Of a DNA stretch of 64,000 nt, positions 11,966-45,745 are shown one piece after another. Below the pieces are notes generated by a model that was given only the letters and a program-made list of their open reading frames with translations, ran no database searches and was not told the DNA's origin. Each line of letters begins with the position of its first letter. Position 1 is the stretch's first letter. Position numbers and translations under genes: made by a program. This DNA is from an uncultured virus (IMG/VR IMGVR_UViG_3300037189_010778) (lineage: Duplodnaviria > Heunggongvirae > Uroviricota > Caudoviricetes): IMG/VR virus record IMGVR_UViG_3300037189_010778, positions 1-64,000 of that record, one strand, 5' to 3'.

Positions 11966-13057
11966 TTACTTTTTAATACCGGCTAATTTTTGCATTCTTT
12001 CAAACGCGGAATTAACTTCGATAATTGGTTGTTTGGTGTTTTGAGCACCAGCGATAACTTTAGATGCCATACCTCTTACAGACTCAGTCATAGGACGTTT
12101 TGTAGTAGTTTGTGTATTTAAGTTTTCCATCATGGTTTCATACACAAGTCTGGCTTCTTTTTTACTTGTAGCTTTGTCAAAAGCAGTTAAAACTTTAACT
12201 TTTTGTGACTCGCTTAAGTTTTTAGCTTTAAAGACTTTGTTAGCGTAAAGAAGTTTAGAATTTAATAAATTAACTTCACTGAGTTCAGATTTAACTTTGG
12301 CTAAAACTCTGTAAGCTTCATTTAATTCTTCTTTCATCTCATAATAAGCTTCAAAATCAACATCTTGGAATTTAGGTAAGTCTCTCTTATGTTTGCTAGC
12401 CTTACTAGTTCTGTCATGCTTTTCATAATAAGCATCAGGTTTAAGATCTTTAGCTTCATCTAAATCTTCGTCGTCGTACATTTCAGCTAAGAGTTCATCT
12501 AAGTTAATTTCCTCTTCTTCTTCATCTTCAACTTCTATTTCATCTTCAGCACCCATCTCATCTTCCATACCTTCATGTCCAGCTTCTAATTCGCCAGCTT
12601 CGATCATGTCAGAGATAACATCTTCAATGAAATTTTTTAAGTCTTTTTCGGTCATGTCTTCAATATCAAATTCTTCTTCCTCCTCTTCTTCAGCTTCTTC
12701 AGCTTCCATTAAGTCGGTGTCTGATTCTGAGCTTGGGGTAACATTACCGTGGGCTCCTTGCCCTCTAGGGTCATTAATAACTTCTTCCATGTCGTTAAGT
12801 TCTCTTAGAAGTTCATCTAAGTCTAACTCATCCATGGAATCTTCATTTTCGTACATAGATTCTTCATCCATGTCCATCTCTTCTGTTATGTCTTCCTCAT
12901 CCATATTCTCATCTATTTCAGCCAATTTAGCGGCTAATTTTTCTTTAAGATACGGAGTGAAAGTTTCTTCAAGAGCTACTTTTGCATTGGCGATCGCTGT
13001 CTCTTTTATAGCTTTAGCGTCGGCAATGGCTTCTTTCAGAATGTCTCTGTTTGCCAT
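11966..13057 (-). CDS. Prohead scaffolding/core protein (T4 gp22 analogue); probable ATG at 13057
   Basis: Very acidic, coiled-coil-like; between protease and capsid genes; ends FERMQKLAGIKK. Confidence 0.8.
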   Translation of the reverse strand: MANRDILKEAIADAKAIKETAIANAKVALEETFTPYLKEKLAAKLAEIDENMDEEDITEEMDMDEESMYENEDSMDELDLDELLRELNDMEEVINDPRGQGAHGNVTPSSESDTDLMEAEEAEEEEEEEFDIEDMTEKDLKNFIEDVISDMIEAGELEAGHEGMEDEMGAEDEIEVEDEEEEEINLDELLAEMYDDEDLDEAKDLKPDAYYEKHDRTSKASKHKRDLPKFQDVDFEAYYEMKEELNEAYRVLAKVKSELSEVNLLNSKLLYANKVFKAKNLSESQKVKVLTAFDKATSKKEARLVYETMMENLNTQTTTKRPMTESVRGMASKVIAGAQNTKQPIIEVNSAFERMQKLAGIKK

Positions 13058-13193
13058 AATTTTCCTCAAATTTTTTGTTGGAAGTACGCTTATTAAGTGT
13101 TGAAAGCGTAATATAATTTATATAAGCGATGCAATATAGGGAATTGCATATTCTAATATACATATATCGAAGGGACTCAAAATACCAAAAAGA

Positions 13194-13215
13194 AACCCTC
13201 CTTTTAAGGGGGGTT
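13194..13215 (-). terminator. Putative terminator after prohead protease
   Basis: Minus strand AACCCCCCTTAAAAGGAGGGTT then TCTTTTT; one stem mismatch. Confidence 0.55.
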
Positions 13216-13236
13216 AATTTATTTTATAGTATACAA

Positions 13237-13854
13237 TTATATTATAGGACAAGTACCATTAGCGCAAAGTATTTCAGCTAAAAGAGTATTTACTCTAGAG
13301 TATGGATATGTTTTTCTTCTCATTCCTTCATTTAATCCTTCTTTTACTGAGCGCATATATGAACCTGGATTAGATGGTGTGCTTACAAAATCCCAACATA
13401 ATAATTCAAAGTCATCTTGTACTTCCATTGTTCCTTCTCCTAGTGGTTTTAAACTACCCATTCCACGAGATGAAACACCTACTTGTACATTATTGTCAAT
13501 AAGTGCTTTTAATATATTACCAGAAACTGTGGGTAGTATTTCAATTTTACCTATCACTTTATCTCCATCCCACCATATGTTTCTTATAATATGAGATACA
13601 TTTTTTAATGAGATAATAGAGGAATCAGGATGATCTAATTCACCTGTTGCTCTATTTTCTTTAATACAATCCATGTATTTTTCTATCTCACGTTCCCATA
13701 ACTCCTTAGGATAATATCTACCATTGCCGTTTTTAACTTCAGCTGTAGCTAATATGCCCTCAACAAGTGGATTACCAGATGGAGCTTTAGCACCTTCATG
13801 AAGTTGTTCAGGTGATACTGAAAAGGGCATTGTTTCTATTAATACTTGTTTCAT
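13237..13854 (-). CDS. Prohead maturation protease (T4 gp21-like)
   Basis: N.NGRYYP; GELDHP; VSH; GVSSRGMGS; WDFVSTPS. Confidence 0.93.
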   Translation of the reverse strand: MKQVLIETMPFSVSPEQLHEGAKAPSGNPLVEGILATAEVKNGNGRYYPKELWEREIEKYMDCIKENRATGELDHPDSSIISLKNVSHIIRNIWWDGDKVIGKIEILPTVSGNILKALIDNNVQVGVSSRGMGSLKPLGEGTMEVQDDFELLCWDFVSTPSNPGSYMRSVKEGLNEGMRRKTYPYSRVNTLLAEILCANGTCPII

Positions 13855-13856
13855 AC

Positions 13857-14894
13857 TTATTCTATAGTGTTATCTTCTTCACCAATTACTTCTTCTTTAG
13901 ACGTTGATTTTTTATCTAATTTTGCTTTAAGACTTTCAAGTTTTTTTATCTCATTTTTGAGATCTTTCATTGTCTTAGGATTAGTAGCTCCCTTTTCAAT
14001 TTCTTCAAGTGTAGTTAATGCTTTAAGTTTTTTCTTGCGCTTCATTATTTCTTCACCAATTTTTCTAGCTTTAGCTTGATATTCAGCTATTTTGCCTACC
14101 TCATCAATTTCTTTCATGTTAAGTTCTTCTTTGATGAGTTGTTGAATAACTCTACGCAATTTAGTTTCTTGCAATCTAATTGTCTTTGGTTTACCAGGTA
14201 ATGGCATTTTCTTTACTCCTTTTGAGTTTTGTGGTTTTATTGGCATTTCTTTTACTTTTTTAGGCATTGTTGTTTTAGCTTCCTTATCACTAAGGGTATC
14301 TTTAGTATTGGATTTAATTTTTTCTACTCCAGCATCTGTATCACCATATCCACTAGCTTTCCATTTTCCTTTAGGTGCTTTAGGTTCACCTAATCCAGGA
14401 GCATCTTTAGTATATCCTATACCTTTAATACCAAATTGAGCTTCTATGGCGTAATAGTTTCTATCTTTACCTAGATTTTTAGCTACAATTTGTTTAATTT
14501 CGTCTGGTGTTTTATTTTTATTTTTTGGATCTTGCATTTCTGTGTAGAATCCATTTAAAAATGTTTGACCATATAAATTATCAATATTATCTGGGGTTTT
14601 GTAATCGTATGAATGGTCTTGTATGTCAGTTACTTCTTTAGATACTTTATTTTCTTTAGCTCTAACTGATTCATTAAATACAGAAAACCAATCTTTACGA
14701 CCCCCAGTAGATACCATTCCTAATCCAGCTTTACTTTCTGTAAGAATACTTTTATCTTTTAATATATTAACTGTTTCCTTAAATGAATTATAGTGGTTAA
14801 CATATTCAGGAAACAAGTAACGTGCTTGTTTTAGAAAGTGGTTTTTATTACCTTTACCTTCTTGTATTTGTTTGTATTGGTCTTGTAATGTCAT
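13857..14894 (-). CDS. Hypothetical head-associated protein
   Basis: 345 aa in head cluster; ILTE, RLQE, LIKEEL motifs. Confidence 0.55.
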   Translation of the reverse strand: MTLQDQYKQIQEGKGNKNHFLKQARYLFPEYVNHYNSFKETVNILKDKSILTESKAGLGMVSTGGRKDWFSVFNESVRAKENKVSKEVTDIQDHSYDYKTPDNIDNLYGQTFLNGFYTEMQDPKNKNKTPDEIKQIVAKNLGKDRNYYAIEAQFGIKGIGYTKDAPGLGEPKAPKGKWKASGYGDTDAGVEKIKSNTKDTLSDKEAKTTMPKKVKEMPIKPQNSKGVKKMPLPGKPKTIRLQETKLRRVIQQLIKEELNMKEIDEVGKIAEYQAKARKIGEEIMKRKKKLKALTTLEEIEKGATNPKTMKDLKNEIKKLESLKAKLDKKSTSKEEVIGEEDNTIE

Positions 14895-14908
14895 TTTATT
14901 TTTATTTA

Positions 14909-15196: not shown

Positions 15197-15213
15197 TTTA
15201 TATTATATTTTGT

Positions 15214-16432: not shown

Positions 16433-16465
16433 TCAATAGATTTTATTATAAATATGTAAAAATAA

Positions 16466-18361
16466 TTACTCCTTCAATTGTCTTTCATCCAACAACGTAA
16501 TGTTTTCTGTTTCTTTAGGGAACAGAGGTGTTTTACTTAAACTCTCAATTAACGTTTTATTCTTTTGATATACGGTTTGAGCTGTCTCAAGAGCTAATGG
16601 TGAACCACCTTTATAATTAGTTTTTCCGTATGTTTCTTGATCATCTACTTTCATATCAGTTTTACCTAATCTGTCTCTACCAAAAGCATTATATTGAGTG
16701 TTTATGTTAGATACTTTTTCAGATGGACGACCTAATTTTATATCTTCTCCATACCCATCAGGTACATTTTCAGGATTACTTCCCATTCTTCCAGCGCCAT
16801 ATAATGCAGCCAAGTCATGAGGTGTACCATATGATTTACCTGTTACTTTAGGATCATTTCCTTCTTCAGTAACTTGTTTAATTCTAAACTCACGTTTAGC
16901 ATCTTCAAGAGCTAAATCTCTATATTCTGAGTATTGGTCTTGAGATAAATGGAATATATTATCATAAATCCAATCTGTAGGTAATAGTTTAGATTCTTGG
17001 ATACTTCTAGCTAAATCTACTTTTTCTTTTAATAACGCAATACGTTCCTGATCATATATAATTGATGGTGTAGTAAGAGATAATTCAAAATTAGTTAATT
17101 GATCAGTTGTATATCCTTGTGTATATAAATGTACTAATGCTATTTTATACAGCTCAGATAATGTTATACGTTGAATCCTATCAATAGTACGAGCAAAACG
17201 AATATCTTCAGCAGCTAATGTGGCTTTACCTGTTAAATCTTTTTCATACCCCATAAACGCTTTAGGTACTTTTAACGCTGCGAATAACTTATCTCTTAGG
17301 TAAGTTACGTCTTCTATAGCAGTATATTGTAATCCAGGTAATGTTTCTATCTTAGTTGTTTGATCATTTCCACGTACAGGTATAAAGAAGTCTTCAAGTA
17401 AATTTTGCATGTTGTACTTTAAGTTATATTGACCTGTTTCTTGATCAATAAACGGAGTACGTTTCATCTTTGAAATAGTTTTTTGCATGAAGTTTTCTAC
17501 TTCATTAGGTGGAATAGAACCAACATTTAAGTAGTAAACACGTTTATCTGGAGAACGAGCAATACGATGTATTAACATCGCGTCTTCCATTAATGTGTAT
17601 TGTTTAAATAAACGACGAGCGGGTTCAATATAAGCTCTACCATAAGGTAAATAGTTATTGTCTGTTAAAAGACGAAAATGAGCCATTTCATAGTTATCAA
17701 AAAACACACCTGGAGTAGTGCTAGGATCCGTACCTGCTACACTATAATATCCTGATCCACCTGTATAAAATCCATCAGGTGAGTATTTAAAACGTACTGA
17801 AAATGGATTATCTTTGTCCCATCCCTCTTCTCTTTCAATATGATAAGCAGGAATAGGAATTACATTATATACTCCAAATTTTTCAGATATATCTAATTTA
17901 AGGAAAAAATCACCATATTTACACATTTGACGAATCCATGCCCATAAATTAAATTCAATATTTAAAATATCATAAAATAAGTTATATAATGTCTTTTGAA
18001 TATCTTCATTACTACTTCTTATTTGTAATACTTCACCCATATCATTTTTAAGGGTACATTCTTCAGCTACAATATCTAAAGCAGATGCAACAATAGCATC
18101 TGTATCCATAATATCATAATCAGAATAAATTTGAGGTCTTAAATATCTATAGTTTAAATTAAACTGAGCACCAAATAATGATGTTGCTCCAGGTGAATAT
18201 ATTCTATTATATCTATCCACAAGAGAATTAGTAGCAAATTCTCCTGATTGTTGGATAGTATTGGTATCCATTACTTTAATTTGGTTACCACCATCATTGC
18301 GTATAACTACATCTGTTGAAAATAAACGTTGTAGTCTTCTAAATATACTTGTATCAGCCAT
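16466..18361 (-). CDS. Portal protein (T4 gp20-like)
   Basis: LMEDAMLIHRIARSPDKRVYYLNVGSIP; LEDFFIPVRG; IETLPG; KLFAALKVP. Confidence 0.93.
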   Translation of the reverse strand: MADTSIFRRLQRLFSTDVVIRNDGGNQIKVMDTNTIQQSGEFATNSLVDRYNRIYSPGATSLFGAQFNLNYRYLRPQIYSDYDIMDTDAIVASALDIVAEECTLKNDMGEVLQIRSSNEDIQKTLYNLFYDILNIEFNLWAWIRQMCKYGDFFLKLDISEKFGVYNVIPIPAYHIEREEGWDKDNPFSVRFKYSPDGFYTGGSGYYSVAGTDPSTTPGVFFDNYEMAHFRLLTDNNYLPYGRAYIEPARRLFKQYTLMEDAMLIHRIARSPDKRVYYLNVGSIPPNEVENFMQKTISKMKRTPFIDQETGQYNLKYNMQNLLEDFFIPVRGNDQTTKIETLPGLQYTAIEDVTYLRDKLFAALKVPKAFMGYEKDLTGKATLAAEDIRFARTIDRIQRITLSELYKIALVHLYTQGYTTDQLTNFELSLTTPSIIYDQERIALLKEKVDLARSIQESKLLPTDWIYDNIFHLSQDQYSEYRDLALEDAKREFRIKQVTEEGNDPKVTGKSYGTPHDLAALYGAGRMGSNPENVPDGYGEDIKLGRPSEKVSNINTQYNAFGRDRLGKTDMKVDDQETYGKTNYKGGSPLALETAQTVYQKNKTLIESLSKTPLFPKETENITLLDERQLKE

Positions 18362-18404: not shown

Positions 18405-19979
18405 TTAATCTAAAAGCCAGCTAAAATTTTCTCTACCTCCTCTTCCATCAGACATAAAATAAGGATTATCCTGACCAGTAGCGAAATAAGCACCTTGGGT
18501 TGGACCTGATTTTCCTACGCCACTTAATGTTGCTCGAGTTAAATCTTGGCTTTGTTGTCTAAATTTAAGTGACGTATCTCTTAGATACATTCCTATTCCA
18601 AATGACATTACTAAATCATCATTATATCCAGATTGTGCTTCTGCTCTACCGTTTCTCCATATGAATACTTTCATTTCATCTAATAAACGTTTAGAACGTA
18701 TGGTTACAGATCTATCACCAACATATTCTCTAAATTTATTTACTACTAAAGGTCTTGTTCGTAAAGACATTGTAAATCCAGCTGTAACATTATCACTATT
18801 TTCATATTTGTTAAAATATGAGTCTACAGTTAATGTATCTGATTTAGGAGAAAAATATAAGTTTTTATAACCTCGCTCTAAAATAGCATCTAATGTAGAC
18901 CAACCAATATTAGAGTTTTCAACTACAAGTAAAGCTTGATTATATTCTGTAGCGGCTCCTACTAGAAAATATCCAAATTCTTTAGGAGGTAATTGACCCT
19001 TATATTCAGCTACTTGAGTATTAGTTGCTATATCTATAACATGAAACGCTGAGAAATCTCGGCCATCACCTCTAGCAACATCTGCTAATACCATATAATC
19101 TCTTTGATAATCGGGTTGTTCCCACACCCAATAATTTTGATCTGCGCCTCTACGTTCTGATGGGTCTTGTATAGTAGTATTAGATATAAATTCTAACCAT
19201 TCATTATAAAAAACAATATCACCAGATGTTGCAAAATCACAATCACATTCTTGAGCAGCTAATCTTGGATCACCTAATAATTCATCTTGTCTTTTTCTCC
19301 AACTTTCATCTCGTTCTGGATGTACATACCATGGTAATTTAATTGGTAAAAAGTCATTTTCAGCGTTTTCTGCTTTAGTCCAAGTTTGATGAAACCAATT
19401 ACCTGTACCATATGGGGTAGATAACACAATAGCTCCACCTCCGGTAGCTAAGGTTTGTTGAGCGGATGCCCATGTATCTTCAATATTTTCAATAAACGCA
19501 GCCTCATCTACTATAAGTAATGATACTGCTTCTGAACGTGCAGCGTCACTATTTGATGATTTTGCTTTAATTTGAGAACCATTTGATAATCTTATTGATA
19601 ACTTATTATTTTCTTCTGTAGGTACTTTTAACCAAGATGGTAAATTATCATACATAAATTTCACCTTAGTTACCATATTGCGAGCTGTTTCTTGTGTTTT
19701 GGATAAACACAAAACATTTTTATCTTTATGGAATAACATTAACCATAAAGAATATCCTGCTGCTAATGTAGATATACCTAACTGTCTAGATTTAAGTACT
19801 ATAGAATATGGATTATCTTTCCATAATGTCAATACTTTACCTTGAAACGGATATAAATTAAATATTACACGACCCCTCTGTGGATGCTGTATATGACAAT
19901 ATTTTTGCATAAAGTGGGCAGGATCAGCTGCACATTTTATATATTCCTCTCTTATAATCTGTTTAATATCTGTACTCAT
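18405..19979 (-). CDS. terL: Terminase large subunit (T4 gp17-like)
   Basis: LYPFQ; KSRQLGIST Walker A; LLIVDEAAF Walker B; STPYG; ADVARGDGRDFS; DDLVMS. Confidence 0.95.
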   Translation of the reverse strand: MSTDIKQIIREEYIKCAADPAHFMQKYCHIQHPQRGRVIFNLYPFQGKVLTLWKDNPYSIVLKSRQLGISTLAAGYSLWLMLFHKDKNVLCLSKTQETARNMVTKVKFMYDNLPSWLKVPTEENNKLSIRLSNGSQIKAKSSNSDAARSEAVSLLIVDEAAFIENIEDTWASAQQTLATGGGAIVLSTPYGTGNWFHQTWTKAENAENDFLPIKLPWYVHPERDESWRKRQDELLGDPRLAAQECDCDFATSGDIVFYNEWLEFISNTTIQDPSERRGADQNYWVWEQPDYQRDYMVLADVARGDGRDFSAFHVIDIATNTQVAEYKGQLPPKEFGYFLVGAATEYNQALLVVENSNIGWSTLDAILERGYKNLYFSPKSDTLTVDSYFNKYENSDNVTAGFTMSLRTRPLVVNKFREYVGDRSVTIRSKRLLDEMKVFIWRNGRAEAQSGYNDDLVMSFGIGMYLRDTSLKFRQQSQDLTRATLSGVGKSGPTQGAYFATGQDNPYFMSDGRGGRENFSWLLD

Positions 19980-20049: not shown

Positions 20050-20847
20050 TTATTTTAATAAACTTATTAATCTATCTTGTGCTTTTTCTAATTCTTTTTT
20101 AGCTTTAGTTTTTTCTTTAAGTGCGTCTTTTAATTTTTCTTTTTCTTCTCCTTCAGCTTGTTTATATTTTCCTACTATTTCTTTCATTTCTTTTTCTATA
20201 GCAGTTAATTCATCTTCTAACTTTTGAAGTCTAACTGAACTTTTATTTGTTTTTGCTGCTGTTTGAGCTCGTTCATCTTTTTCCTTTTCATTACTTTTTT
20301 CTTTAGATGTTGATGTTTTAGGAGTTGATGCTTTAGGTTCTTTAGGTTCTTTAGGTGTTGATGTTTTAGGTTCTTTAGGTAATTTTTCTCTACCAGCTTC
20401 AAGATATGCTGCAAAATCTCCATCTTCTTTTTCAAGAGCAGCTCGAGTAGCTGGGTTATTCCATGTAGCTGTATCTTTATTTGTTTGTTTAGCTAATACT
20501 TTAATATCTACTTCATTTTCTTTTTCTAAAGCGGATAATAATTGATCTAAGGCATTTTTACCATATTTTTCACCTCTATTTTCTTTATACTTATCTAATG
20601 CTTTTTTAAAGCCTTCTTTATCTTTTACTTTATAAAAAGATGCCATTTCATTAAGTGAAATTTCAGCTACACCAATTGATGTTTGTGTTTTTCTAGCTTG
20701 AGATATAGCGTCTTTAACGGTGTCTAAACCAGTTCGTTCAGTTCTAGCTATACTTGGTGCTTCTGATGGGTCTGTTTTAGAGCCAACCATAGTTAATTCT
20801 GAAATTATCATTTCTTTGATAAGTTGTTTAAGTTGAGATTTTTTCAT
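20050..20847 (-). CDS. Hypothetical protein with MKKSQLKQLIKEMIISE leader
   Basis: 265 aa; Lys/Glu-rich; PKEPK repeats. Confidence 0.7.
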   Translation of the reverse strand: MKKSQLKQLIKEMIISELTMVGSKTDPSEAPSIARTERTGLDTVKDAISQARKTQTSIGVAEISLNEMASFYKVKDKEGFKKALDKYKENRGEKYGKNALDQLLSALEKENEVDIKVLAKQTNKDTATWNNPATRAALEKEDGDFAAYLEAGREKLPKEPKTSTPKEPKEPKASTPKTSTSKEKSNEKEKDERAQTAAKTNKSSVRLQKLEDELTAIEKEMKEIVGKYKQAEGEEKEKLKDALKEKTKAKKELEKAQDRLISLLK

Positions 20848-20877: not shown

Positions 20878-22152
20878 TTAATCTAAATAATCATCTACTA
20901 ATTTTTTCATAACTCTTGCTACATTTGAATTAACATCATATCTATCTCGAAAATAAGATACGTCTTGATCTATATCATTGTTGTGGCTATATTGTTCCCC
21001 ATCTTCAATTGTAAAATTTCTTACAAAATAATTAAATCCCCAATTGTTTTCCAAATCATCATGGATTTTATTCCACTCTTCTTTAGAATATTTTTTAAAA
21101 TCATCATAATATATGTCATTAGGATCTATTTCATCATAAGAATGAAATAAAGCCCATTCCCATATTTCATAATCCGAATTATATAAATCTGGGTAGTCTA
21201 TGAATTTGGCTAGATAGTTTATTAATTTACCTTCATTTTCATAACTTACATCTAATTTTAATAAAGAAGCAATACCAGGATCATTAACTCGCATTTCATT
21301 TACAGATCGATTAGAATAATTAATTATATATTTTTTAATATCATTTAAATTTAATATAATCATAACCCAAACAAATGTTCCTCCACCTTCACTGTCTGTA
21401 TAAAACTCTAATATTGGAATTTCATATTGTTTAAGTTTAGATATAAAAGATCTTAATCCATTTATGTTAAAATCAGGATTCTCAGATTCAATAGCATCCA
21501 TAATATTTTCATCACTATATCCAGCCATTATTTCAGGTTCATTATATATAGGAATAGTGAACATTAATTCTTTATCTTCATCCAATATATTACCATAATA
21601 TTCAACGTTATTTTTCTTATCAATGTATATTATTTCATCTTCATTTTCTTTTTTAAAAATAAGAGAAGAAGGTTCATTAACTCGCATTTCATTAATATCA
21701 GATTTTTGATCTTTGATCTTTTTTAAAAAATCTTCAACAGCATACTGATAAAGTTTTTGATCGTCCTTTACTTCTTTAAGTGCTTTTATATACTTGGGAT
21801 CATTTATATTTATAATATTTTTATTATTAACTGCGTGCTTTAACATGAGTTCATGACCTAAACGATTAGCATACCAGTTAAAATCTCTTTCATCATCAAT
21901 AAGATCACCTAATGTACCTTTATAACCAATTTGTTTAGCGATATCAAATGCTAAAACATTTGCCATTTCACCATCATAAAATTCACTCCAAAAATCCTCA
22001 GGATCGTCGGGTATTATATAATCATCCCAATATTCATCTAAGATATCTTTATAAAGATTATAATTAGTCCAACGATATTTATTTGGTTCATTAACTCGCA
22101 TTTCTGTTATAGGGATACCAGCCAATTTTTGCATGCGATAAAATTCACTCAT
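20878..22152 (-). CDS. Putative polyprotein: RMQKLAGI leader plus three EMRVNxP-headed acidic domains
   Basis: 424 aa; motifs at 22084-22104, 21670-21690, 21277-21297. Confidence 0.7.
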   Translation of the reverse strand: MSEFYRMQKLAGIPITEMRVNEPNKYRWTNYNLYKDILDEYWDDYIIPDDPEDFWSEFYDGEMANVLAFDIAKQIGYKGTLGDLIDDERDFNWYANRLGHELMLKHAVNNKNIININDPKYIKALKEVKDDQKLYQYAVEDFLKKIKDQKSDINEMRVNEPSSLIFKKENEDEIIYIDKKNNVEYYGNILDEDKELMFTIPIYNEPEIMAGYSDENIMDAIESENPDFNINGLRSFISKLKQYEIPILEFYTDSEGGGTFVWVMIILNLNDIKKYIINYSNRSVNEMRVNDPGIASLLKLDVSYENEGKLINYLAKFIDYPDLYNSDYEIWEWALFHSYDEIDPNDIYYDDFKKYSKEEWNKIHDDLENNWGFNYFVRNFTIEDGEQYSHNNDIDQDVSYFRDRYDVNSNVARVMKKLVDDYLD

Positions 22153-24492: not shown

Positions 24493-24936
24493 TTAAAAAC
24501 CTAATTGCTTACCATATTTTTTTAACATGCTATCATAGTATCTAATTTTTTTATTATAAAAATTCGCATCATCTAAAAGACCCATATCTTGACCATACTG
24601 GAGGTAAAATTGAGCTGCTAAAGCATTGCAATACAAATTAAAAGTTTCATTACTCATTACAAGATTATCAAAATTACCTTTAAAACCAGCTCGTTTAGCA
24701 ATATCAAATGCTAGATCATTTACTAAACTAAAATCATCAAGTTCTAACATAAATTCTTCAGGAGAATTAATCCCATATGCTTCAAATAAATCTTCTAACA
24801 CAGATTCATATCCTTCATAATCTTGCCAATCTGGGGAAAGTGAGTCTATAGCGTTGAATTTTTGATTGTTTTTAGACGCGCTGATAGCTTTATTAATCTC
24901 TTCGCGAATTAATTTTCTAAGTTCAAATTTTTTCAT
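24493..24936 (-). CDS. Hypothetical protein with MKKFELRKLIREEI leader; homologue of first domain of 20878-22152
   Basis: 147 aa; LAFDIAK..G.KG shared. Confidence 0.7.
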   Translation of the reverse strand: MKKFELRKLIREEINKAISASKNNQKFNAIDSLSPDWQDYEGYESVLEDLFEAYGINSPEEFMLELDDFSLVNDLAFDIAKRAGFKGNFDNLVMSNETFNLYCNALAAQFYLQYGQDMGLLDDANFYNKKIRYYDSMLKKYGKQLGF

Positions 24937-25000: not shown

Positions 25001-25276
25001 TTACTTACCAAACTTTTTTTTACCATACTGTAGTAACATTCGGTGAGCTTTTGAGTAACTATCTTTTGAAGCTTTTCCCATAGCACTACCTTCTATTTTT
25101 TCAGCCACAGTATCAACTAAATCTGAGTATGTTATTTCATCTTTAAGTGATTCCATGTCTGTGACTCCATGGGTCTTTAATATTTTTTCAAGGTCTGAAG
25201 ACGATAATTCTTGATTTTCATTAATTACTTTACGAATTTCTTCTTTAATGAGTTGTCTTAATTCAAATCTTTTCAT
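25001..25276 (-). CDS. Hypothetical protein with MKRFELRQLIKEEIRKVINE leader
   Basis: 91 aa ORF. Confidence 0.7.
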   Translation of the reverse strand: MKRFELRQLIKEEIRKVINENQELSSSDLEKILKTHGVTDMESLKDEITYSDLVDTVAEKIEGSAMGKASKDSYSKAHRMLLQYGKKKFGK

Positions 25277-35200: not shown

Positions 35201-36079
35201 ATCAGGATTGTTTCTATCTATATGAGGAGTATCCATATATGGGGGAGGGTTAGTTATAGCACTTGTCGATACTACTTTTAAGTTATTATCTTCTTGCTCT
35301 GCTTTTTTAGACCAACGTGCTACATTCCATCCAGTAAATGCAGCTATTATTTTTTCTTTAGATAAATCTATTAAATAATTTTCTGGTTCACGATATGTTA
35401 ATTTTGGGATTTGTTTATAGTCATCATATGAGTGAATTTCTCCGTATGCCTTTTCATATTTGAACGGTTCATTAACTCGCATTTCCTTAATAACATCTGT
35501 TTTTTTAAATTCTCCTATCAAATATGATTCAAAATCATTATCATCAATAACATCAGCAAGATAAAATGAGTAGCAATCATTATTATTTATAACTTCATCT
35601 ACAGAATATTTTACACTTTTTGTTGTATATATTTCATCATCATAATCTATAATATCTTTTTTAACTTGGGCAAGAGCACTTCTAAATAAACAATCTATAT
35701 CTACATTTTCTTCATAGAATTTAGTTATTAATTTGTATAGATAGTTTTTTAAGTTAGGATTAATTTCAAGATATTCTTTAATATTTTCTTCATCTATCAG
35801 ATCTTCATTATTATATGATAAAAGTATTTCTTCACCATCTTTAAATATCTCATGATTATTAAAGATCATTTGATCTATTATAAAAGATTTGAGTACATCA
35901 TATTGTTCAATTAAATAATCTAAATCAATACCATCAGATTCAAATGTATCTATTACGCGTAAAACTACATAATCTTTAATTTTAGATATTATTTCAGGAG
36001 AAATACCATAAGTAAGAGATTTGGGTTTATTAACCCTCATCTCATTTAAAAATTTATCAGTCAGTTTAAATTCTATCAT
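32243..36079 (-). CDS. Large multidomain polyprotein with three EMRVNxP tags and an ADP-ribosyltransferase-like (ART-PolyVal-type) domain
   Basis: 1278 aa; WHGSPNYFRQF...GGGTG...GWGLYF near 34730-34822. Confidence 0.7.
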   Translation of the reverse strand: MIEFKLTDKFLNEMRVNKPKSLTYGISPEIISKIKDYVVLRVIDTFESDGIDLDYLIEQYDVLKSFIIDQMIFNNHEIFKDGEEILLSYNNEDLIDEENIKEYLEINPNLKNYLYKLITKFYEENVDIDCLFRSALAQVKKDIIDYDDEIYTTKSVKYSVDEVINNNDCYSFYLADVIDDNDFESYLIGEFKKTDVIKEMRVNEPFKYEKAYGEIHSYDDYKQIPKLTYREPENYLIDLSKEKIIAAFTGWNVARWSKKAEQEDNNLKVVSTSAITNPPPYMDTPHIDRNNPDSWEPRSVAMSLIRKYAPLVEMRVNEPKKFYPGEKVSLGNETLTLSKDYNRYYTEKDGIPWYLIDDDKTGQRFWARENLIKKLKPIKKENMHKQTFAEIFLESFNKEIKKTFSKIDKTKPLNENEEAWHGSPNYFRQFHSEGMGGGTGIQVIGWGLYFGKNPEMVKGYALSINTPHRFKTLFQGKTAEELGLEYENEVFFGLPQGLKTAKEYIEYAEDMISILEEEPDFESKEEVLDNYRKFIEIIKDLEVEQESMHYIYKVTLFPNKTPDYLNWDGPIPQYQVDKINKQAQKDNVDVNINTSMIGSKVYHTIENFYGKKSKNPPKDTSLFLLRAGIDGNTHYGGNVRIVFDDREIQIDKVYKTKEFKDLRESKRTQLNEYSEKIINQMTEKFQKEMKNTLSKDDIKEKLNRFDQIKQNLPKKIQAGLKGEAGGIIVPKKFTEPDPKTNKILNPQDILNYTWKDLETVLDAYGGKAEKSSKDFSTIQDAELIDIKGVPVVYNNNGLKIYEGSDYGGCIKLNYAFKYKGEDNKIYSYGFCIGRKEEASNQYYTYRFGRGGAFRSFYFVADSTQNADIKGNPSNRENFINWYHFFVIHAFQNGKFGVTDTVNQWGSNHEATGNDKGMSWDEVGQFMIKNGGESGKQAWEKIKNLKDVFKYVPPSEEETDQALVRDKILDFNMFKDLNRNQKRIYIANRADQPNAFNSAMFKILDPELKNLALRTGTGYKPTYNDLKDSKALSRSYAKFRFTRALDDYKQGKTSTTIVPLPFIEYLSDEEKQQYLDIFEKDSLSFEYIKKYFGEDAAKTYVNKMAKELDFLPPEAIDYISDPKLKQLYELYIKLFEPWIYEEGTNISSEDLENRNAMPTQEVNPVPIDEEQWRKLSTSERKTIINLVEKFNQNTKYSTLLFAVPFIINDKGKKYVLLPKSNKDNMYYESWVIMDAEGNVIKDNISGDSMLGNNVYLSSGMPEKQEDYNRIYNMNDLTES

Positions 36080-36443: not shown

Positions 36444-37172
36444 TTAAAATACTTCCGGATTTTCTTTATAGTCTTTATAGCTTACAGTTAAGAACCCTTT
36501 ATTATTAAACTCACTAAGAGTTCTTGAATAATCTTCATCCCATAGTGGTTCCTTATAACTTATACCATCATTGTGTCTTTCTACTAAATATTCTTCTCCA
36601 ACATAATATCCATAAGCTATAGTAAATTTATTTGTACCTAATTGATTATATAAAGTCACAAATGGGAGTAATACATCTTCTATATCATCTTTTATTTCTT
36701 TTAAAGACATCAATTCTTCTTTATCTGGTTCTACTATTATATGATCACCTTCTATGTATGGTAATTCTTCTTGTGATTGCCAATAATCAGTACTATTATT
36801 AGCGTCTAAAATATATTTTAATATGCCTTGATTATCATTGTTATTATAATAGTCAACTAATGTTAATGCATCATTTTTAGTTAAAGTATCTTCAAATATG
36901 TCACTTATTGGTCCTTTCATAAATCTATATAGATCTTTAAAACCATAATACCCACCAGCTAAATAATTAATATCTTTTTTTAATTCATTAACTACATTTT
37001 GTAATGTGTCATTATATTCACTAAATCTTCCACCCATTTCAGAATCAGAATATATAAATTCTACTATTATATCTGCGTCAACATCTGTATAAGATTCACT
37101 AGTAGCTTTTATATACAATACGCCAGGTTCATTAACCCGCATTTCATTTAATATATCTATTAATTTAATCAT
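36444..37172 (-). CDS. Acidic hypothetical protein, MIKLIDILNE-MRVNEP leader
   Basis: 242 aa; motif 37125-37145. Confidence 0.7.
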   Translation of the reverse strand: MIKLIDILNEMRVNEPGVLYIKATSESYTDVDADIIVEFIYSDSEMGGRFSEYNDTLQNVVNELKKDINYLAGGYYGFKDLYRFMKGPISDIFEDTLTKNDALTLVDYYNNNDNQGILKYILDANNSTDYWQSQEELPYIEGDHIIVEPDKEELMSLKEIKDDIEDVLLPFVTLYNQLGTNKFTIAYGYYVGEEYLVERHNDGISYKEPLWDEDYSRTLSEFNNKGFLTVSYKDYKENPEVF

Positions 37173-37174
37173 AA

Positions 37175-38638
37175 TTAAATTCTATTTCCGTCCTCATCAA
37201 AGTTTTTAACATCTGGATAATACTTTCCAGAGCTATCAAACCATCCAACATATCTATCTTCGTCTTGACCAGCATATGGGCTATATACTGTTATTTCTTG
37301 ATTTTTCCTATCAATATTTACGGCAGTATAATAAGCATCGGGTGGTGCACCTAGGGCTGTACTGTAAGCAAATATGTCTTTTGTTACATGCGTTCCAGGT
37401 GATTTTTTAAGTAGATGACGTATTGCTAATAACGCTTTACTATCTTCATCTAAATCTTCATAATCTTTTAATCTGTATGTTTCACGCGCAGGTTCATATA
37501 AATCAAAACCATAATCTGATTCTCCAAAATACTCTACTAATACCCATAATGCTTCTTCATCTTTATTTGTTAATTGTCCTGGAATGTTAATCCGCATTTC
37601 TTTTACAGGAATACCCGCTAGTTTTTGCATGCGTTTCATTTCATCCAAACCTTCTAAACCAGTATCATCTTTTTTAAGATCAGAGTTTATATCACGCATA
37701 GTATAAAACGCCCATCTTTTTTGCTCATTTGTTAATTCATCATTGATAGCATTTTCAACAAATGAATAAAATTCATCATAATCTGCTATTTTATACAATT
37801 CAGCTAAAAATAAATCTCTAACACGAGGATCATCAAATTCAGACTCTACCCATATTTTAGTTATATTATTGTATATATATTGCCCAAATCTTATATCATC
37901 TAATTCATTTTTATATGTATCAACTTGATTAGTGACTTTTTTAGCTTCTTCTCCACCTGATTCTTTACGTTTAGGAAAAGATACATTTACTCTTCCTACT
38001 CCTTCTAATTGATCACCATAACGATCAATAACTTGCAATAATTTAGCTATTTGATTTTCATCATGATATCCACCAAATATATCATCCATAACTTGAGCAT
38101 AATCATCAGTTAATTCAGGATTAATAAGATCTAAATAATCTTTGTAATTATAATGACTGAATGCTCCTCGTACTGCTCCACCTTGTGTTATACTATTTAT
38201 GATACGTCTTTTTTCAGGAGAAACCTTATTATGGTAAGCTTGTTTAGATATAATCTCATATAATCCTTTAGCTATTTCATGCATTAAAATAGGAAATACT
38301 AATCCTCGAGCGTGAATTACAATATCATGTTTTTTTAGTAATTCTGGGTCAGTTTGGTATGGTTTTCCTAATTTGGTATCTTTTCCTAATTTAGCATCTA
38401 TACCTATCCCAGCATAGTCTATTACAGGATATACTTCTTTAGCTATTTGAACAGCTAAAGCTTCTAATTCATCCTTATAATCTGCTTCTGCTGCTTCTAA
38501 TTTATTTACTAAACTAAACGCGTTAGCCTGCATTTGTCCAGGTGATCTTCCTTTTAAAACTTTACTAAGAGTATCTTTAGATTTTCCTTTAAGTGTACCT
38601 AAAGTTTTAGGTGAGAATATATTTTTGTATTCAGCCAT
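37175..38638 (-). CDS. Hypothetical protein with appended RMQKLAGI-EMRINIP module
   Basis: 487 aa; FPILMHEIAKG; internal leader/tag at 37580-37639. Confidence 0.7.
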   Translation of the reverse strand: MAEYKNIFSPKTLGTLKGKSKDTLSKVLKGRSPGQMQANAFSLVNKLEAAEADYKDELEALAVQIAKEVYPVIDYAGIGIDAKLGKDTKLGKPYQTDPELLKKHDIVIHARGLVFPILMHEIAKGLYEIISKQAYHNKVSPEKRRIINSITQGGAVRGAFSHYNYKDYLDLINPELTDDYAQVMDDIFGGYHDENQIAKLLQVIDRYGDQLEGVGRVNVSFPKRKESGGEEAKKVTNQVDTYKNELDDIRFGQYIYNNITKIWVESEFDDPRVRDLFLAELYKIADYDEFYSFVENAINDELTNEQKRWAFYTMRDINSDLKKDDTGLEGLDEMKRMQKLAGIPVKEMRINIPGQLTNKDEEALWVLVEYFGESDYGFDLYEPARETYRLKDYEDLDEDSKALLAIRHLLKKSPGTHVTKDIFAYSTALGAPPDAYYTAVNIDRKNQEITVYSPYAGQDEDRYVGWFDSSGKYYPDVKNFDEDGNRI

Positions 38639-38645: not shown

Positions 38646-38915
38646 TTATTTTTTAGATCTGTATCTTTTTATTATTTTTCTTAAAATAGCATCCTTTTCA
38701 TCTTCATTCACAGCTTTATCTGGTGTTTCATCTGGTGTTTCCTTTGGTGGAGTTAGAGGTCGGCGTGGACCTGGTTTTTCTATTGGGAGGCCAGGATGAA
38801 CTTCTGGTTCCGTACCAGGTTGTGTAGATGGTGAAGGTTTAGGAGCTGGTTGATTTTCTCTTAAAGCTGTTTTTATTTCTTCTCTGATAATTTTTTTTAA
38901 GTCTGATTTTTTCAT
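38646..38915 (-). CDS. Pro-rich small protein, MKKSDLKKIIREEIKTALRE leader
   Basis: 89 aa ORF. Confidence 0.65.
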   Translation of the reverse strand: MKKSDLKKIIREEIKTALRENQPAPKPSPSTQPGTEPEVHPGLPIEKPGPRRPLTPPKETPDETPDKAVNEDEKDAILRKIIKRYRSKK

Positions 38916-39648: not shown

Positions 39649-40305
39649 TTACCAGTATCCACTAAAATTTGAACCTCCACCTAATGATTTCCAGTATCTA
39701 CCTATATTACATGACCAGTATCCAGGTTTTGTACGGTCTTTTTTCTTGTCACACTGCTGTCTAGAGGCAAATGCTTTACGTGCTTTTGGGTCTCGTATTT
39801 TAACGGCTAAATTTTGTCCACCACCGGCGGCACCAAAGGATACCTTTTTTACTTTTTTGGTTTTAGGATCACGAACATAAACATAAAATTTTTTAGACCC
39901 ACCACGTTTAGGTTTATTTAATTGTACTTTTTTACCTTGATATTCTGATTCATTTAATGGTAAATCTAAAGGTACTTTTTGTCCTTCATATATTCCATAT
40001 TCGCCTAAATTAGTTTCAACAATGATTTTTTTATCTTCACCAGATAAATGTATAGCATCGCGTGAGTATAAATAGCGTGCTTCAGCCCATAGATCTAAAA
40101 ATGCGTCTGAACCGTATCTAAATGTGTTTTCTGTTAATGGCTTTTTATTACTGATGTGGTATTGCATATTTTCAGTCATAATTATTTTAGCGCCTAAACT
40201 TTCGTTTAACATAGGAGCTTTAGCACACTTATCATGACACCCACACCCACAATCATAGGCATGTTTAGCTAATACTTCTTTAATTAATTTACGTAGATTA
40301 TTCAT
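39649..40305 (-). CDS. Hypothetical protein (LRKLIKEVL leader; basic C-terminal domain)
   Basis: 218 aa; LNE-SEYQGKKVQLNKP...KKFYVYV...VSFG. Confidence 0.65.
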   Translation of the reverse strand: MNNLRKLIKEVLAKHAYDCGCGCHDKCAKAPMLNESLGAKIIMTENMQYHISNKKPLTENTFRYGSDAFLDLWAEARYLYSRDAIHLSGEDKKIIVETNLGEYGIYEGQKVPLDLPLNESEYQGKKVQLNKPKRGGSKKFYVYVRDPKTKKVKKVSFGAAGGGQNLAVKIRDPKARKAFASRQQCDKKKDRTKPGYWSCNIGRYWKSLGGGSNFSGYW

Positions 40306-40652: not shown

Positions 40653-40663
40653 AATTTTTTTAC

Positions 40664-40695: not shown

Positions 40696-40698
40696 TTT

Positions 40699-41460: not shown

Positions 41461-41480
41461 AATAGAATTTTATTTAAATA

Positions 41481-41512
41481 ACAATATAAGCATAGGTTTA
41501 AAAATAACCAAA
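41481..41512 (-). promoter_or_regulatory. Bacteroidota-type promoter variant
   Basis: TTTG-N20-TATATTGT. Confidence 0.55.
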
Positions 41513-41513
41513 C

Positions 41514-42806: not shown

Positions 42807-43423
42807 GGTTTTTTAATTTTAAAATTTTTTACTATATTGTATTTTATAGATGGGTTTACTTTAAGTAATTCTAAAAGTTCAATATAACTACTTAACATTG
42901 GAGGTTCTTCTTCTACAATATCATCATCTGGTATATGATTAATTATATCAGATATGTTCATTATATCTAAATTTATTAATGATGGTGATATATCAACTCC
43001 ATTAGGCAATAATTTTAAATTTATTCTCTCTTCAGATTCGTCTGTAAATAAGTGTCTACCATATCCTGCTTTAATATCGGCATACGGTTCTATTCTATAT
43101 CGTTCTGATAGCATATCTCCATCAATTTTAATTCTAACATTTTGACTTATAGAATTTGATTTCATATACTTGTTTCTAGTAAATGAAAGATATGATGATT
43201 GTTTACTTCCTATCACAGGATTCATAATTAAGCCATCATTTATTATATCAATCATACTTCTATAAGAAGTGAAATGATATAATATCCCTACTTGTTTAGC
43301 TTCACCTAATATTTCTTGAATTATATTATTTAATAAGGTAACATCATGATTATCATTCATGTCAGGATAACCTTTAGGAAATTTATAAGCAAACTTTTTA
43401 AAGAATTTATCAAATATATCCAT
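42803..43423 (-). CDS. Hypothetical protein with possible ADP-ribosyltransferase-fold domain
   Basis: ILGE-AKQVGILYHFT...LSFTR...ESEERI. Confidence 0.5.
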   Translation of the reverse strand: MDIFDKFFKKFAYKFPKGYPDMNDNHDVTLLNNIIQEILGEAKQVGILYHFTSYRSMIDIINDGLIMNPVIGSKQSSYLSFTRNKYMKSNSISQNVRIKIDGDMLSERYRIEPYADIKAGYGRHLFTDESEERINLKLLPNGVDISPSLINLDIMNISDIINHIPDDDIVEEEPPMLSSYIELLELLKVNPSIKYNIVKNFKIKKP

Positions 43424-44118
43424 TATTTAGTTTTTATATTTCTTATACTAGTGAATATATTATTTAATAATACTGTATCATCAGATTTAATTAATCCTAT
43501 CATAATATCTGCTAGTATTTTATTAGCAGCTGGATTTAGGACTTTATTTTGTTTGACTAATGATATTGTAGTGTTAATCTTTGTTGGTTCTATGCTAGGT
43601 ATTTCTAATTTTTTAAGATATGAAACTAGGGCTGATATGTTGCCTTCTATTTCTTCTTCATTAAGGACATTAATGATTTCTTCTTTAACAAGTTTACGTA
43701 ATTGTTGCATTTTATTTTCTTTTATTCCAGTTACTGTCCTATCTTGATAATTATTTTTTAAATAATCTACTAGTTTTTGGTTCATATTAAAATCTTGTTC
43801 TAATGGTTTATTATCAGACTCTCCTTCTATAGTTTTAGATATTACTCGCATAAATCCATTTTCAATAGTATCATCTATAATTTTAGACATATTATCATCT
43901 ATATCTAATTTATCTAACCATGTTTTTGTTTTTTTAGTATCTGGTTTAGATATAGCGGCTTTAATAAAATCATATGTAGTTTTAGCTGTACTCAGACCTG
44001 GTATAAAATCAGATATAGTATCTGCCGCTAATCCAGCTATTTTTTCTCCTTTTTGTTTAAGAGATATAGATTTTATAGCTTTTTTTAAATCACCATATGT
44101 TTTTAACTCATTAGCCAT
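43423..44118 (-). CDS. Hypothetical protein with internal LRKLVKEEIINVLNE segment
   Basis: 231 aa ORF. Confidence 0.65.
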   Translation of the reverse strand: MANELKTYGDLKKAIKSISLKQKGEKIAGLAADTISDFIPGLSTAKTTYDFIKAAISKPDTKKTKTWLDKLDIDDNMSKIIDDTIENGFMRVISKTIEGESDNKPLEQDFNMNQKLVDYLKNNYQDRTVTGIKENKMQQLRKLVKEEIINVLNEEEIEGNISALVSYLKKLEIPSIEPTKINTTISLVKQNKVLNPAANKILADIMIGLIKSDDTVLLNNIFTSIRNIKTK

Positions 44119-44130
44119 TTACTATTATTT

Positions 44131-44712
44131 TTAAGCCTCAGCAGGTACTTCTTCTGATTTCTCTACTGCGGGAGCTTCTGCTGGTGTTTCTTCTGCTGGT
44201 GTGGAAGATGTAGGAGGTCTTCCAGGAGACGATGCTTCACCTGGTGTTTCAGGGAATTCAAATGATTCTTCTGGTGGTGTTTCTACAGCTGTTTCACCAT
44301 AGTATAACATATGAGCTAATGTTTGACAAGCAAATTCTTCTTCACCTATATTAAGTAAATAGTATTTTTTACCTTCAATTTGAGCTATCCAACTTTTTGG
44401 AGTATATATTAAATAAAATAATTCATCATTAGCTAATATAACCCTAAATGTTAAAGGTTTAGGAGCTACCCACTGTATATCTTTTACAAAAGGCCCGTAA
44501 TTAGGTGTAAGTAATGTCTCTATAACTTCTTTAAGAGGTGGGAACTTAGACACTATTGGAAATTTTTCAGATGGAACAGACATCTCATCTGAGTCATCTG
44601 TATTATCTGTAGAATCTATAAAATTATCAGTATCAATAGAGTCATTAGAAGCAGGTTTATATACCTGCTTAACTAATGCTTTTACTTTTTCTCTAAGTTC
44701 GTCTTTAGTCAT
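44131..44712 (-). CDS. Hypothetical protein, acidic Pro-rich tail
   Basis: 193 aa ORF. Confidence 0.65.
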   Translation of the reverse strand: MTKDELREKVKALVKQVYKPASNDSIDTDNFIDSTDNTDDSDEMSVPSEKFPIVSKFPPLKEVIETLLTPNYGPFVKDIQWVAPKPLTFRVILANDELFYLIYTPKSWIAQIEGKKYYLLNIGEEEFACQTLAHMLYYGETAVETPPEESFEFPETPGEASSPGRPPTSSTPAEETPAEAPAVEKSEEVPAEA

Positions 44713-45242
44713 TATTCACCCTTTAATTTGCGCATGATTGTTTCAGCCATTCTTGCTTTTTGTTTCGCTGTTGGACCTTTACCACCACCTTTTGCTTTAT
44801 ATGACGCTACAGCTCCTGCTATTTTAGTTGCTGCTTTTTTTGATTTACCTTGTTTTTTAAGTTTCCCAACAAGTTGTTTAAACGATTCATCTATTGTATC
44901 TGTTTTTTCAGCCCAGTATCCTTTAGGTAAACCTTCTTCTATATCATCATCATTTGAAATACCTCCAACTATATCATTATAATCAGCCATAGTAAGTATT
45001 CTATCTTCAGCACTTAAAGTTGTAGCCATTTCTGTCACATCATGTAAATCCATGTCTGTTTCAGCGTCTTCTTTAGCATATTCTAACATACGTAAAAATA
45101 AAGGAACATCCATTACTATAACATCTGTTGGATTTGGTTCTTGTCTTTTACGTGAAGAAATAAACGACTCTGAGTCTATTTCATCTTGTTTAGGTACGGC
45201 TAGAGCCATTCTAACCATTTCTTTAATTCTAACTTTGTTCAT
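44712..45242 (-). CDS. Hypothetical protein
   Basis: 176 aa; MDVPLFLRMLEYAKED segment; basic C-terminus. Confidence 0.65.
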   Translation of the reverse strand: MNKVRIKEMVRMALAVPKQDEIDSESFISSRKRQEPNPTDVIVMDVPLFLRMLEYAKEDAETDMDLHDVTEMATTLSAEDRILTMADYNDIVGGISNDDDIEEGLPKGYWAEKTDTIDESFKQLVGKLKKQGKSKKAATKIAGAVASYKAKGGGKGPTAKQKARMAETIMRKLKGE

Positions 45243-45244
45243 GA

Positions 45245-45745
45245 TTAGGCGTTTGGATTTATATCAGGTTCAGCTACATGCTGACGAGTGAAGAAAGTAA
45301 TTGTATTGCCAATTTGATGAAGTAATTTATCATCTTTTAATTTTTCAGCAGCGTCTTGTAATTGATCAAGTAAATCTAATATACGTTCTACTTCAGGATC
45401 GTCTCCACCACCAGTTTCCATACTTGGTTCTTCCATATCTGGTTCTTCTATGTCAATATCTTCTATATCAATGTCTTCATCGTCATCTTTAGATTTCTTT
45501 TTAGCTTCATCTACTGGGTCATAGTATGAATCTTCTACAGCAGCACCGTCCATTTCTGCTAATACCATTTCACGTATCTTTTTACGTAATTTAGATTTAG
45601 CCATTTTTTCACCAGCTTTTTTACCTTTTTCATACTCATAAGCTCCTAAACCTTCATTGAGATTTTTACGCTCACCAAATGTATTAATCTTTAGTTCACT
45701 ATCAATGCCAGCTAATTTTAGCATTCTTTGAAATTCATTGTTCAT
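45245..45745 (-). CDS. Acidic hypothetical protein with EFQRMLKLAGI leader
   Basis: 166 aa ORF. Confidence 0.7.
   Translation of the reverse strand: MNNEFQRMLKLAGIDSELKINTFGERKNLNEGLGAYEYEKGKKAGEKMAKSKLRKKIREMVLAEMDGAAVEDSYYDPVDEAKKKSKDDDEDIDIEDIDIEEPDMEEPSMETGGGDDPEVERILDLLDQLQDAAEKLKDDKLLHQIGNTITFFTRQHVAEPDINPNA

Follow-up and report, generated by a model that had tools for sequence, protein, structure and literature searches.

Bacteriophage T4 loads proteins into its head by means of a capsid targeting sequence (CTS), which is carried by the internal proteins IPI, IPII and IPIII and by Alt (Mullaney and Black 1996, as cited in PMC9026906, PMC5694885 and PMC3012670). As PMC9026906 describes it, unrelated proteins reach the core by way of N-terminal propeptides of 10-19 residues that are subsequently cut off; the T4 prohead protease gp21 cuts after L/I-x-E, and the packaged proteins include anti-restriction and host-takeover factors. 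How a CTS recognizes the prohead is left undefined in the review text available, where the phrase used is "affinity to the core" (PMC9026906). Here, we describe a peptide, Phi-x-R-M-Q-K-L-A-G-I, found in a 64,000-nucleotide stretch of an uncultured virus (IMG/VR record IMGVR_UViG_3300037189_010778, positions 1 to 64,000; the whole stretch is called the window below). The source is a T4-like phage of aquatic bacteria. The peptide forms the C-terminal tail of the protein encoded at the scaffold position, recurs on unrelated proteins of the same phage next to a T4-type protease motif, and probably serves as a portable prohead-addressing tag.

The arrangement is similar to the T4 CTS in several respects. 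In both cases, a short N-terminal peptide precedes otherwise unrelated, fast-changing proteins, the set of tagged proteins varies between relatives, the peptide has an L/I-x-E-type ending, and the genome encodes a gp21-family protease within a gp20/gp21/gp22/gp23-type head module, the homology between the scaffold and gp22 being weak. In contrast to the CTS, the tag is also found C-terminally and internally, and it spans 17-27 residues, compared with 10 in IPII and IPIII. By eye, the T4 leaders (MKTYQEFIAE in IPII/IPIII and MKTFKEF... in IPI) have nothing in common with the tag beyond the terminal x-E. We suggest from this comparison that the tag works like a CTS but belongs to a different peptide family; relative to the CTS architecture, the new element appears to be a tag that replicates the conserved tail of the scaffold itself. 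For T4, both targeting and cleavage have been proven, whereas we infer them for the tag described here.

Scaffold C-termini are shared between proteins in other systems as well. In herpesviruses (UL26/UL26.5) and phage lambda (C/Nu3), nested genes give a protease and the scaffold one C-terminus, and the second protein enters the procapsid by carrying the scaffold C-terminal end. Those genes overlap in frame, whereas separate genes here carry a copy of 10-12 residues. In 80alpha, the last ~16 residues of the scaffold, a helix followed by a five-residue hook, are described as binding the N-arm of the capsid protein, and SaPI1 CpmB carries a homologous C-terminus that competes for the same capsid site (PMC5644958). 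The window's phage resembles this pair in that the extreme C-terminus of the scaffold is conserved and further proteins (five in this phage) carry a copy. The layout may be similar too, as an AlphaFold2 (AF2) model has, at moderate confidence, a helix with a short non-helical end on a disordered tether. Unlike CpmB, a rival scaffold of a satellite that changes capsid size, the copies here are carried by accessory proteins of the phage itself, chiefly N-terminally, and unlike both 80alpha and CpmB they are paired with protease sites. The likeness to 80alpha is one of layout, and the endings RIIK and GIIK are mere look-alikes. In phage P1, an N-terminal DarB segment of no more than 30 residues is reported to suffice to send a protein or a foreign reporter into the head (PMC9024508), and as a capsid targeting signal at the N-terminus it is comparable to the tag; unlike the present phage, P1 is described as having no separate scaffold protein, and scaffold mimicry is absent from the available text of that report (PMC9024508). 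Encapsulin cargo peptides and engineered P22 scaffold fusions (PMC10402063 and PMC9962691, as far as these sources describe them) similarly use a short terminal peptide or the scaffold's shell-binding part to bring cargo into an HK97-fold shell. Encapsulins differ in having no scaffold and in keeping the tag, and the P22 system is man-made; the tag here would be a natural version of the latter. Searches of the open literature, with subscription journals outside the coverage, led to work on T4, SPN3US and P1 and to no description of a scaffold-tail copy as a tag.

The scaffold tail and its copies

There are exactly five occurrences of RM[QL]KLAGI in the window (30% G+C), each in frame within a long open reading frame (ORF) on the minus strand, where the genes of the tag-bearing region lie (Table 1). 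The scaffold-position protein carries one copy as its C-terminal tail; of the other four, three form N-terminal leaders and the last is internal. The sequence-only reading that first drew attention to the peptide had placed all five copies correctly and had described a leader on four unrelated proteins. Three of the four non-scaffold copies are leaders, whereas the fourth lies inside a 487-aa protein. The proteins are indeed unrelated, as all cargo pairs gave E >0.1 by BLASTP with leaders masked. That reading had also noted an EMRVNxP-type sequence within five residues after the peptide in three cases, and these are present as PIT-EMRVNEP, N-EMQVKSP and PVK-EMRINIP, two of them being variants. 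A 160,908-bp IMG/VR record, rated 100% complete and identical to the window across five 3-kb stretches, holds a sixth copy outside the window, MINEFDRMKTLAGIPLAEMRVK, which opens a 149-aa protein.

A chance origin of the five window copies is excluded. In the 75.8-kb record, the degenerate K-L-A-G-I pattern matched five times on the coding strand and never on the opposite strand, and the same pattern read backwards had 0 matches. The five window sites scored 28.7-36.9 bits under a 10-column position-specific scoring matrix (PSSM), and the reversed sequence gave nothing at 14 bits or above. Codons vary among the copies (Leu TTA/TTG/CTA, Ala GCC/GCT/GCG, Gly GGT/GGC and Ile ATT/ATC), and synonymous differences are also seen between genomes. 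Since synonymous codons differ among copies, selection acts on the peptide and not on a DNA repeat.

So that the tail did not itself serve as bait, we gathered scaffold tails through the capsid gene: for each capsid-gene relative in IMG/VR, we took the ORF ending immediately upstream. At least 601 stretches matched, at least 585 were confirmed as relatives, and the best 80 were kept. Among these best 80 neighborhoods, 79 have an ORF that ends 12-50 nt before the capsid gene; 73 of the 79 ORFs end in R-[MWF]-x-x-[LI]-A-G-[IL] plus 0-6 residues, and the remaining six end in RMRELAFG... Across 57 aligned scaffold C-termini, three residues (R121, A126 and G127) do not vary. By capsid protein identity, the closest cultured relatives are Flavobacterium phage immuto (53%), Microcystis phage Mel-JY01 (46%) and Rhodothermus phage RM378 (34%), with a 484-kb uncultured phage at 45%. 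The scaffold ends in RWQKLAGIIK in immuto, RMKKLAGIVK in Mel-JY01, ERIKRLAGL in RM378 and SRMQKLADIS in the megaphage LR756508; an end of this kind is missing from T4 gp22 and from the HTVC008M core protein. Hence, what had been read as the C-terminal end of one scaffold is conserved throughout the clade as the extreme C-terminus of the protein at the scaffold position.

An exact eight-residue scan of IMG/VR found at least 120 loci with at least 121 matches, all in frame. The matches listed comprise 94 C-terminal tails, 26 N-terminal leaders and one other. The N-terminus of a capsid protein follows 87 of the 94 listed tails, five have too little downstream DNA, and two (L045 and L102) are not so followed. 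The C-termini of these two proteins are ...INESFTRMQKLAGIIK and ...MNESFIRMQKLAGIIK, with an [IM]-N-E site immediately ahead of the tag in both; because they are tagged without an adjoining capsid gene, the tag is also used C-terminally away from the scaffold position. The 25 sequences downstream of the listed exact-match leaders fell into 23 clusters. A second scan of IMG/VR, keyed only on the upstream MKKQILSE[EQ]F, returned 47 matches, every one of which continues x-[RK]-M-[QK]-x-[LI]-A-[GD]-Phi. Both the IMG/VR leaders and the cargo bodies in the window thus bear out a portable tag on unrelated proteins. As a control, the exact pattern in 596 Gb of cellular genomes gave 75 matches, compared with ~52 computed for chance; only 3-4 of these are true scaffold tails, on contigs binned into metagenome-assembled genomes (MAGs), and 0 are leaders. 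Three scaffold tails from genome_contigs (L319, L355 and L382) are filed under MAGs of Maricaulis, Alphaproteobacteria and an uncultured bacterium, and are probably phage contigs swept into bacterial bins.

Whole-record PSSM scans were bimodal, with true sites at 25.8 bits or above and chance matches at about 15. Each scaffold tail is single, and it is accompanied by five other copies in the window record plus G016, two in immuto and four in G017. Leaders accompany a tailed scaffold in all five checkable genomes (the window's phage/G016, immuto, G017, G006 and G018). The megaphage leader copies have a variant form (MDKSRFQELAGVLSE and ..GRLQELAGIEQD). In RM378 and LR756508, a loose K-L-A-[GDE] pattern matched about as often as the control, and only regex-filtered matches were kept.

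The head genes follow the T4 gene order, and the scaffold-position ORF sits where gene 22 does in T4. Its 367 aa are counted from a TTG start; relatives start at an ATG four codons downstream. The protein is acidic, with an isoelectric point of 4.29, and has no Pfam or PHROG match. Because direct similarity to T4 gp22 is weak (BLASTP E 0.12; hhalign probability 18%, E 0.0013, with LTESQKxKV in common), the scaffold assignment rests on position, composition and predicted helices. AF2 modeling of the last 130 aa, with 57 sequences, gave three helices (predicted local distance difference test score, pLDDT, of at least 89), a disordered stretch at 84-116 and a terminal helix. The latter covers SAFERMQKL (117-125) and is followed by five non-helical residues, with block means of pLDDT of 64-75. 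A Foldseek search of this C-terminal model against the PDB returned no match at E of 0.001 or below, only generic helical bundles.

A candidate protease site beside the peptide

We found [ILVM]xE within 11 residues after LA in 38 of the 41 unique leaders, compared with 18 of 209 control windows taken farther downstream. In 32 of the unique leaders, the Glu of the site is residue 22, and all 26 listed exact-match leaders have a T4-type cleavage motif. The tag adjoins a T4-type site in a phage with a gp21-family protease, the protease itself being without the tag. A candidate site, P-I-x-E, also lies just upstream of the scaffold tail; across 57 scaffolds, its Glu (E114 in alignment A3, seven residues before R121) is invariant and P-I nearly so. 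The internal copy in the 487-aa protein has candidate sites on both sides (E333 and E347).

The capsid protein's N-terminal region contains the conserved sites LLE9, LLE35, LLE50 and VTE59, and E59 is invariant in 41 relatives. Capsid LVTE59/TSNVGG aligns with T4 FLTE65/AEIGG, and T4 removes 65 residues from its capsid protein (PMC9546572). Because the capsid maturation site aligns with that of T4, the cutting rule of the protease is probably conserved.

A proposed route into the prohead and its alternatives

What we observe is a conserved motif in two positional classes, next to a site motif, on diverse cargo and among T4-type head genes; packaging, cleavage and the identity of the docking partner are what we infer from here on. 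We consider it probable, though well short of certain, that copies of the scaffold tail dock cargo in the prohead and that the protease then removes them. The original place of Phi-x-R-M-Q-K-L-A-G-I would be the extreme C-terminus of a gp22-like scaffold, where, ending a disordered tether of roughly 33 residues, it would dock the scaffold to another prohead component. We favor the gp23-type capsid protein's inner face or N-terminal region as this partner, the alternative being the scaffold core. Tail copies at the N-terminus (or, more rarely, at the C-terminus or internally) would let accessory proteins use the same docking site and so be built into the prohead. The [ILVM]-x-E site would part tag from body: leaders have it behind the tag, the scaffold has it ahead of the tag, and the internal copy has one on either side. 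Once the prohead is assembled, cutting at this site by the S77 (gp21-type) prohead protease would release the cargo within the head, parallel to T4's handling of IPI-III and Alt. The sequence-only reading had likewise proposed that cargo enters the prohead by mimicry of the scaffold's capsid-binding helix, and the conserved tail, the portable tag and the adjoining site support that proposal in part, whereas the co-variation of leader and tail that it had suggested looking for in related phages is absent, and one copy is internal.

Several results weigh against this route. Tails with W or F coexist with leaders that keep M: the G017 tail RFQKLAGII stands against four RMQKLAGI leaders, the G006 tail RWQKIAGIK against the leader RMQKLAGI, the G018 tail RMRELAGL against RMQKLAGI, RMQKLAGL and RMQFLAGV, and the immuto tail RWQKLAGI against RMQKLAGI and RMQFLAGI. 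Three complete relatives (G010, G011 and Mel-JY01) have one tail each and, by PSSM scan, no other copy; because they carry the tail without a tagged protein, the tagging system is optional. The tag's helical hydrophobic moment does not exceed that of shuffles (fractions of 0.14-0.56 reach the tag value). An [ILVM]xE upstream of the tail is present in 57 of 57 scaffolds, yet also in 284 of 570 control windows of these Glu-rich proteins, and since the motif is so common there, invariance is what argues for the scaffold site. The 166-aa protein has no canonical [ILVM]xE directly after the tag, the next one ending at residue 31. Cargo function lends no support: no Pfam family was over the cut-off in 60 leader-bearing fragments, and the window's tagged proteins have neither a Pfam match over the cut-off nor a PHROG match. 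Finally, tagged proteins of T4 are described as joining the core before the shell and co-purifying with gp22 (PMC9026906).

This last point favors a core partner over the capsid protein. Because T4 tagged proteins have core affinity and co-purify with gp22, the partner could be the scaffold core, with the tail binding neighboring scaffold bodies or another core protein and the cargo hitching on. The conserved three-helix domain of the scaffold (pLDDT above 90) offers a possible receptor, and leaders that stay RMQKLAGI while tails drift to W/F would fit a self-contact co-evolving within one protein. The scaffolds of 80alpha, P22, T7 and SPP1, for which structural or genetic data exist, however, are described as contacting the capsid N-terminal region, in 80alpha through the scaffold C-terminal end, and no result of the present analysis points to a site on the scaffold. 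We regard a core partner as unlikely, although a serious contender. A role as a docking motif for the prohead protease, that is, an exosite that brings in substrates instead of an assembly address, would explain why the tag lies within about 3-13 residues of [ILVM]xE in leaders and scaffold and why two such sites flank the internal copy. However, the main substrate, the capsid protein, has four conserved N-terminal sites and lacks the motif, the scaffold has 28 candidate sites and a single tag, and T4 gp21 is described as requiring only L/I-x-E; we judge an exosite very improbable.

An origin unrelated to the head, whether as a DNA-level repeat, a regulatory signal, a chance match or a set of paralogs sharing an N-terminal domain, has nothing in its favor beyond the repetition itself. 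It is already refuted by the codon differences between copies and genomes, the in-frame placement of every copy at termini in long ORFs, the 0 matches in reversed-pattern and reversed-sequence controls, the near-chance count without a leader in cellular genomes and the unrelated cargo bodies, and we give it next to no credence.

We also computed mutual information between tail and capsid-protein columns (39 pairs), and N-terminal-region columns 12, 13, 26, 29, 38 and 63 came near the top. We rejected this signal as evidence because clade structure confounds it, with exceptions both ways.

Docking of cargo by a scaffold-tail copy would give a concrete, testable answer to the question of CTS recognition, namely one docking site common to cargo and scaffold. 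More tentatively, T4-related phages may in general load cargo by scaffold mimicry, following a rule that can be read from sequence: any protein with a copy of the scaffold's docking peptide beside a protease site would be built into the head and later delivered with the DNA. If so, the tag alone would list the injected proteins of thousands of uncultured phages, and the scaffold tail would reveal the docking site never assigned for T4's own CTS. The tag would also offer a sequence criterion by which proteins that are packaged, and probably injected, could be recognized in uncultured phages, and a short natural label with which foreign proteins could be loaded into large capsids. Tests are feasible, as a cultured member, immuto, carries the tag system with one tail and two leaders (at about 25.5 kb and 111.7 kb of its record).

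Neighboring genes, junctions and other leaders

Table 1. Features of the window discussed in the text (a slash marks the candidate cut)
Feature	Coordinates	Strand	Details
gp23-type major capsid protein	10149..11930	minus	Pfam Gp23, E 4.3e-75
Scaffold-position protein, 367 aa	11966..13069	minus	between S77 protease and gp23-type capsid gene; ends ...KQPIIEVNSAFERMQKLAGIKK, stop
Scaffold tail	11966..12004	minus	FERMQKLAGIKK, stop; presumed original place of the tag
FERMQKLAGI, then KK and stop	11975-12004	minus	C-terminal end of the 367-aa ORF; local sequence ...SAFERMQKLAGIKK, stop
P-I-I-E, scaffold residues 348-351	12017..12028	minus	candidate protease site just upstream of tail
Prohead protease	13237..13854	minus	Pfam Peptidase_S77 (T4 gp21 family), E 9.6e-29; presumed tag-removing enzyme
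T4-type portal (gp20)	16466..18361		Pfam Portal_T4, E 2.3e-68
T4-type large terminase	18405..19979		Pfam
424-aa tagged protein	20878..22152	minus	MSEFYRMQKLAGIPITE/MRVNEP..., plus two internal [IV]NE-MRVN[ED]P junctions
Leader of 424-aa protein, residues 1-17	22102..22152	minus	through ITE site
FYRMQKLAGI	22114-22143	minus	residues 4-13 of the 424-aa ORF; local sequence MSEFYRMQKLAGIPITEMRVNEP
113-aa tagged protein	25337..25678	minus	MKKQILSEEFKRMQKLAGINE/MQVKSP...; MKKQILSE[EQ]F leader type
Leader of 113-aa protein, residues 1-21	25616..25678	minus	through INE site
FKRMQKLAGI	25622-25651	minus	residues 10-19 of the 113-aa ORF; local sequence MKKQILSEEFKRMQKLAGINEMQVKSP
487-aa protein with internal copy	37175..38638	minus
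Internal tag, residues 331-347	37598..37648	minus	LDE/MKRMQKLAGIPVKE/MRINIP
MKRMQKLAGI	37610-37639	minus	residues 334-343 of the 487-aa ORF; local sequence LDEMKRMQKLAGIPVKEMRINIP
166-aa acidic tagged protein	45245..45745	minus	MNNEFQRMLKLAGIDSELKIN...
FQRMLKLAGI	45704-45733	minus	residues 4-13 of the 166-aa ORF; local sequence MNNEFQRMLKLAGIDSE
[ILV]-x-E-M-R-V-N-x-P junctions	21277-52296; e.g. 21303, 21696, 22110, 31272, 31974, 35149, 35491, 36049, 37151, 51340	minus
10-residue leader ORFs	36444..37172, 30916..31572, three ORFs starting near 51340, 51848, 52296	minus
Third leader type	20050..20847, 24493..24936, 25001..25276, 38646..38915, 39649..40305		internal at 43423..44118 and 13857..14894
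1278-aa protein	32243..36079	minus	N-terminal leader MIEFKLTDKFLNE/MRVNKP

The 487-aa protein belongs to no family in Pfam or PHROGs, and its best ESM Atlas score, 0.79, is uninformative. Homology links residues 28-107 of the 424-aa protein to the 147-aa protein at 24493..24936 (36% identity, E 1e-14), which starts with a different leader, MKKFELRKLIREEI. One G017 protein has the leader type of the 147-aa protein and RMQKLAGI in tandem. On this sequence evidence, leaders are modular.

The junction motif [ILV]-x-E-M-R-V-N-x-P has 15 copies in the 75.8-kb record, both after leaders and inside large proteins, with three in the 1278-aa ORF and three in the 424-aa ORF; the codons for Arg and Pro differ (CGA/CGG/AGA/AGG). 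The motif has the look of a protease site in which P1'-P6' are unusually fixed. Because a scan of IMG/VR for N-E-M-R-V-N-x-P gave only 11 stretches, of which five belong to the longer assembly of this same phage, the extended motif is nearly confined to the lineage.

Two further leader types are present. A 10-residue leader, M-I-K-L-[IL]-[DN]-[IV]-L-[NK]-E, stands directly before MRVN and equals the T4 IPII/IPIII leader in length and in its x-E ending. The third type, MKK-x-(E/Q/D)-L-(R/K)-x-(L/I)-I-(R/K)-E-E-I, opens five small proteins and resembles residues ~241-260 (LQETKLRRVIQQLIKEELNM) of a 345-aa protein encoded just upstream of the protease. For one leader the resemblance is strong, being reached by 0 of 100 shuffles; for the others it is weak (shuffle fractions of 0.03-0.26). 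The third type may represent a second instance in which a leader copies a core protein. We also compared third-type leaders with the scaffold N-terminus and rejected the match as weak (shuffle fractions of 0.01-0.4). In T4, the IPII/IPIII leader MKTYQEFIAE/A resembles the gp22 N-terminus MLKEQLIAE/A (M, Q and IAEA in common), a match too short for statistics, and the window scaffold also begins ..RDILKEAIADAK. This hints that the leaders of T4 may be modeled on the scaffold's opposite end, its N-terminus, and that the rule of scaffold mimicry may apply to T4 as well.

About residues 419-462 of the 1278-aa protein, two weak leads converge on an ART-PolyVal ADP-ribosyltransferase domain: ESM Atlas scores of 0.80-0.83, and a PF18760 match of 15.7 bits, below the cut-off of 31.2 (E 0.001 for this record). 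An hmmscan of the whole protein gave no ART-PolyVal match at E up to 5. Such a domain, if real, would parallel Alt, the packaged ADP-ribosyltransferase of T4.

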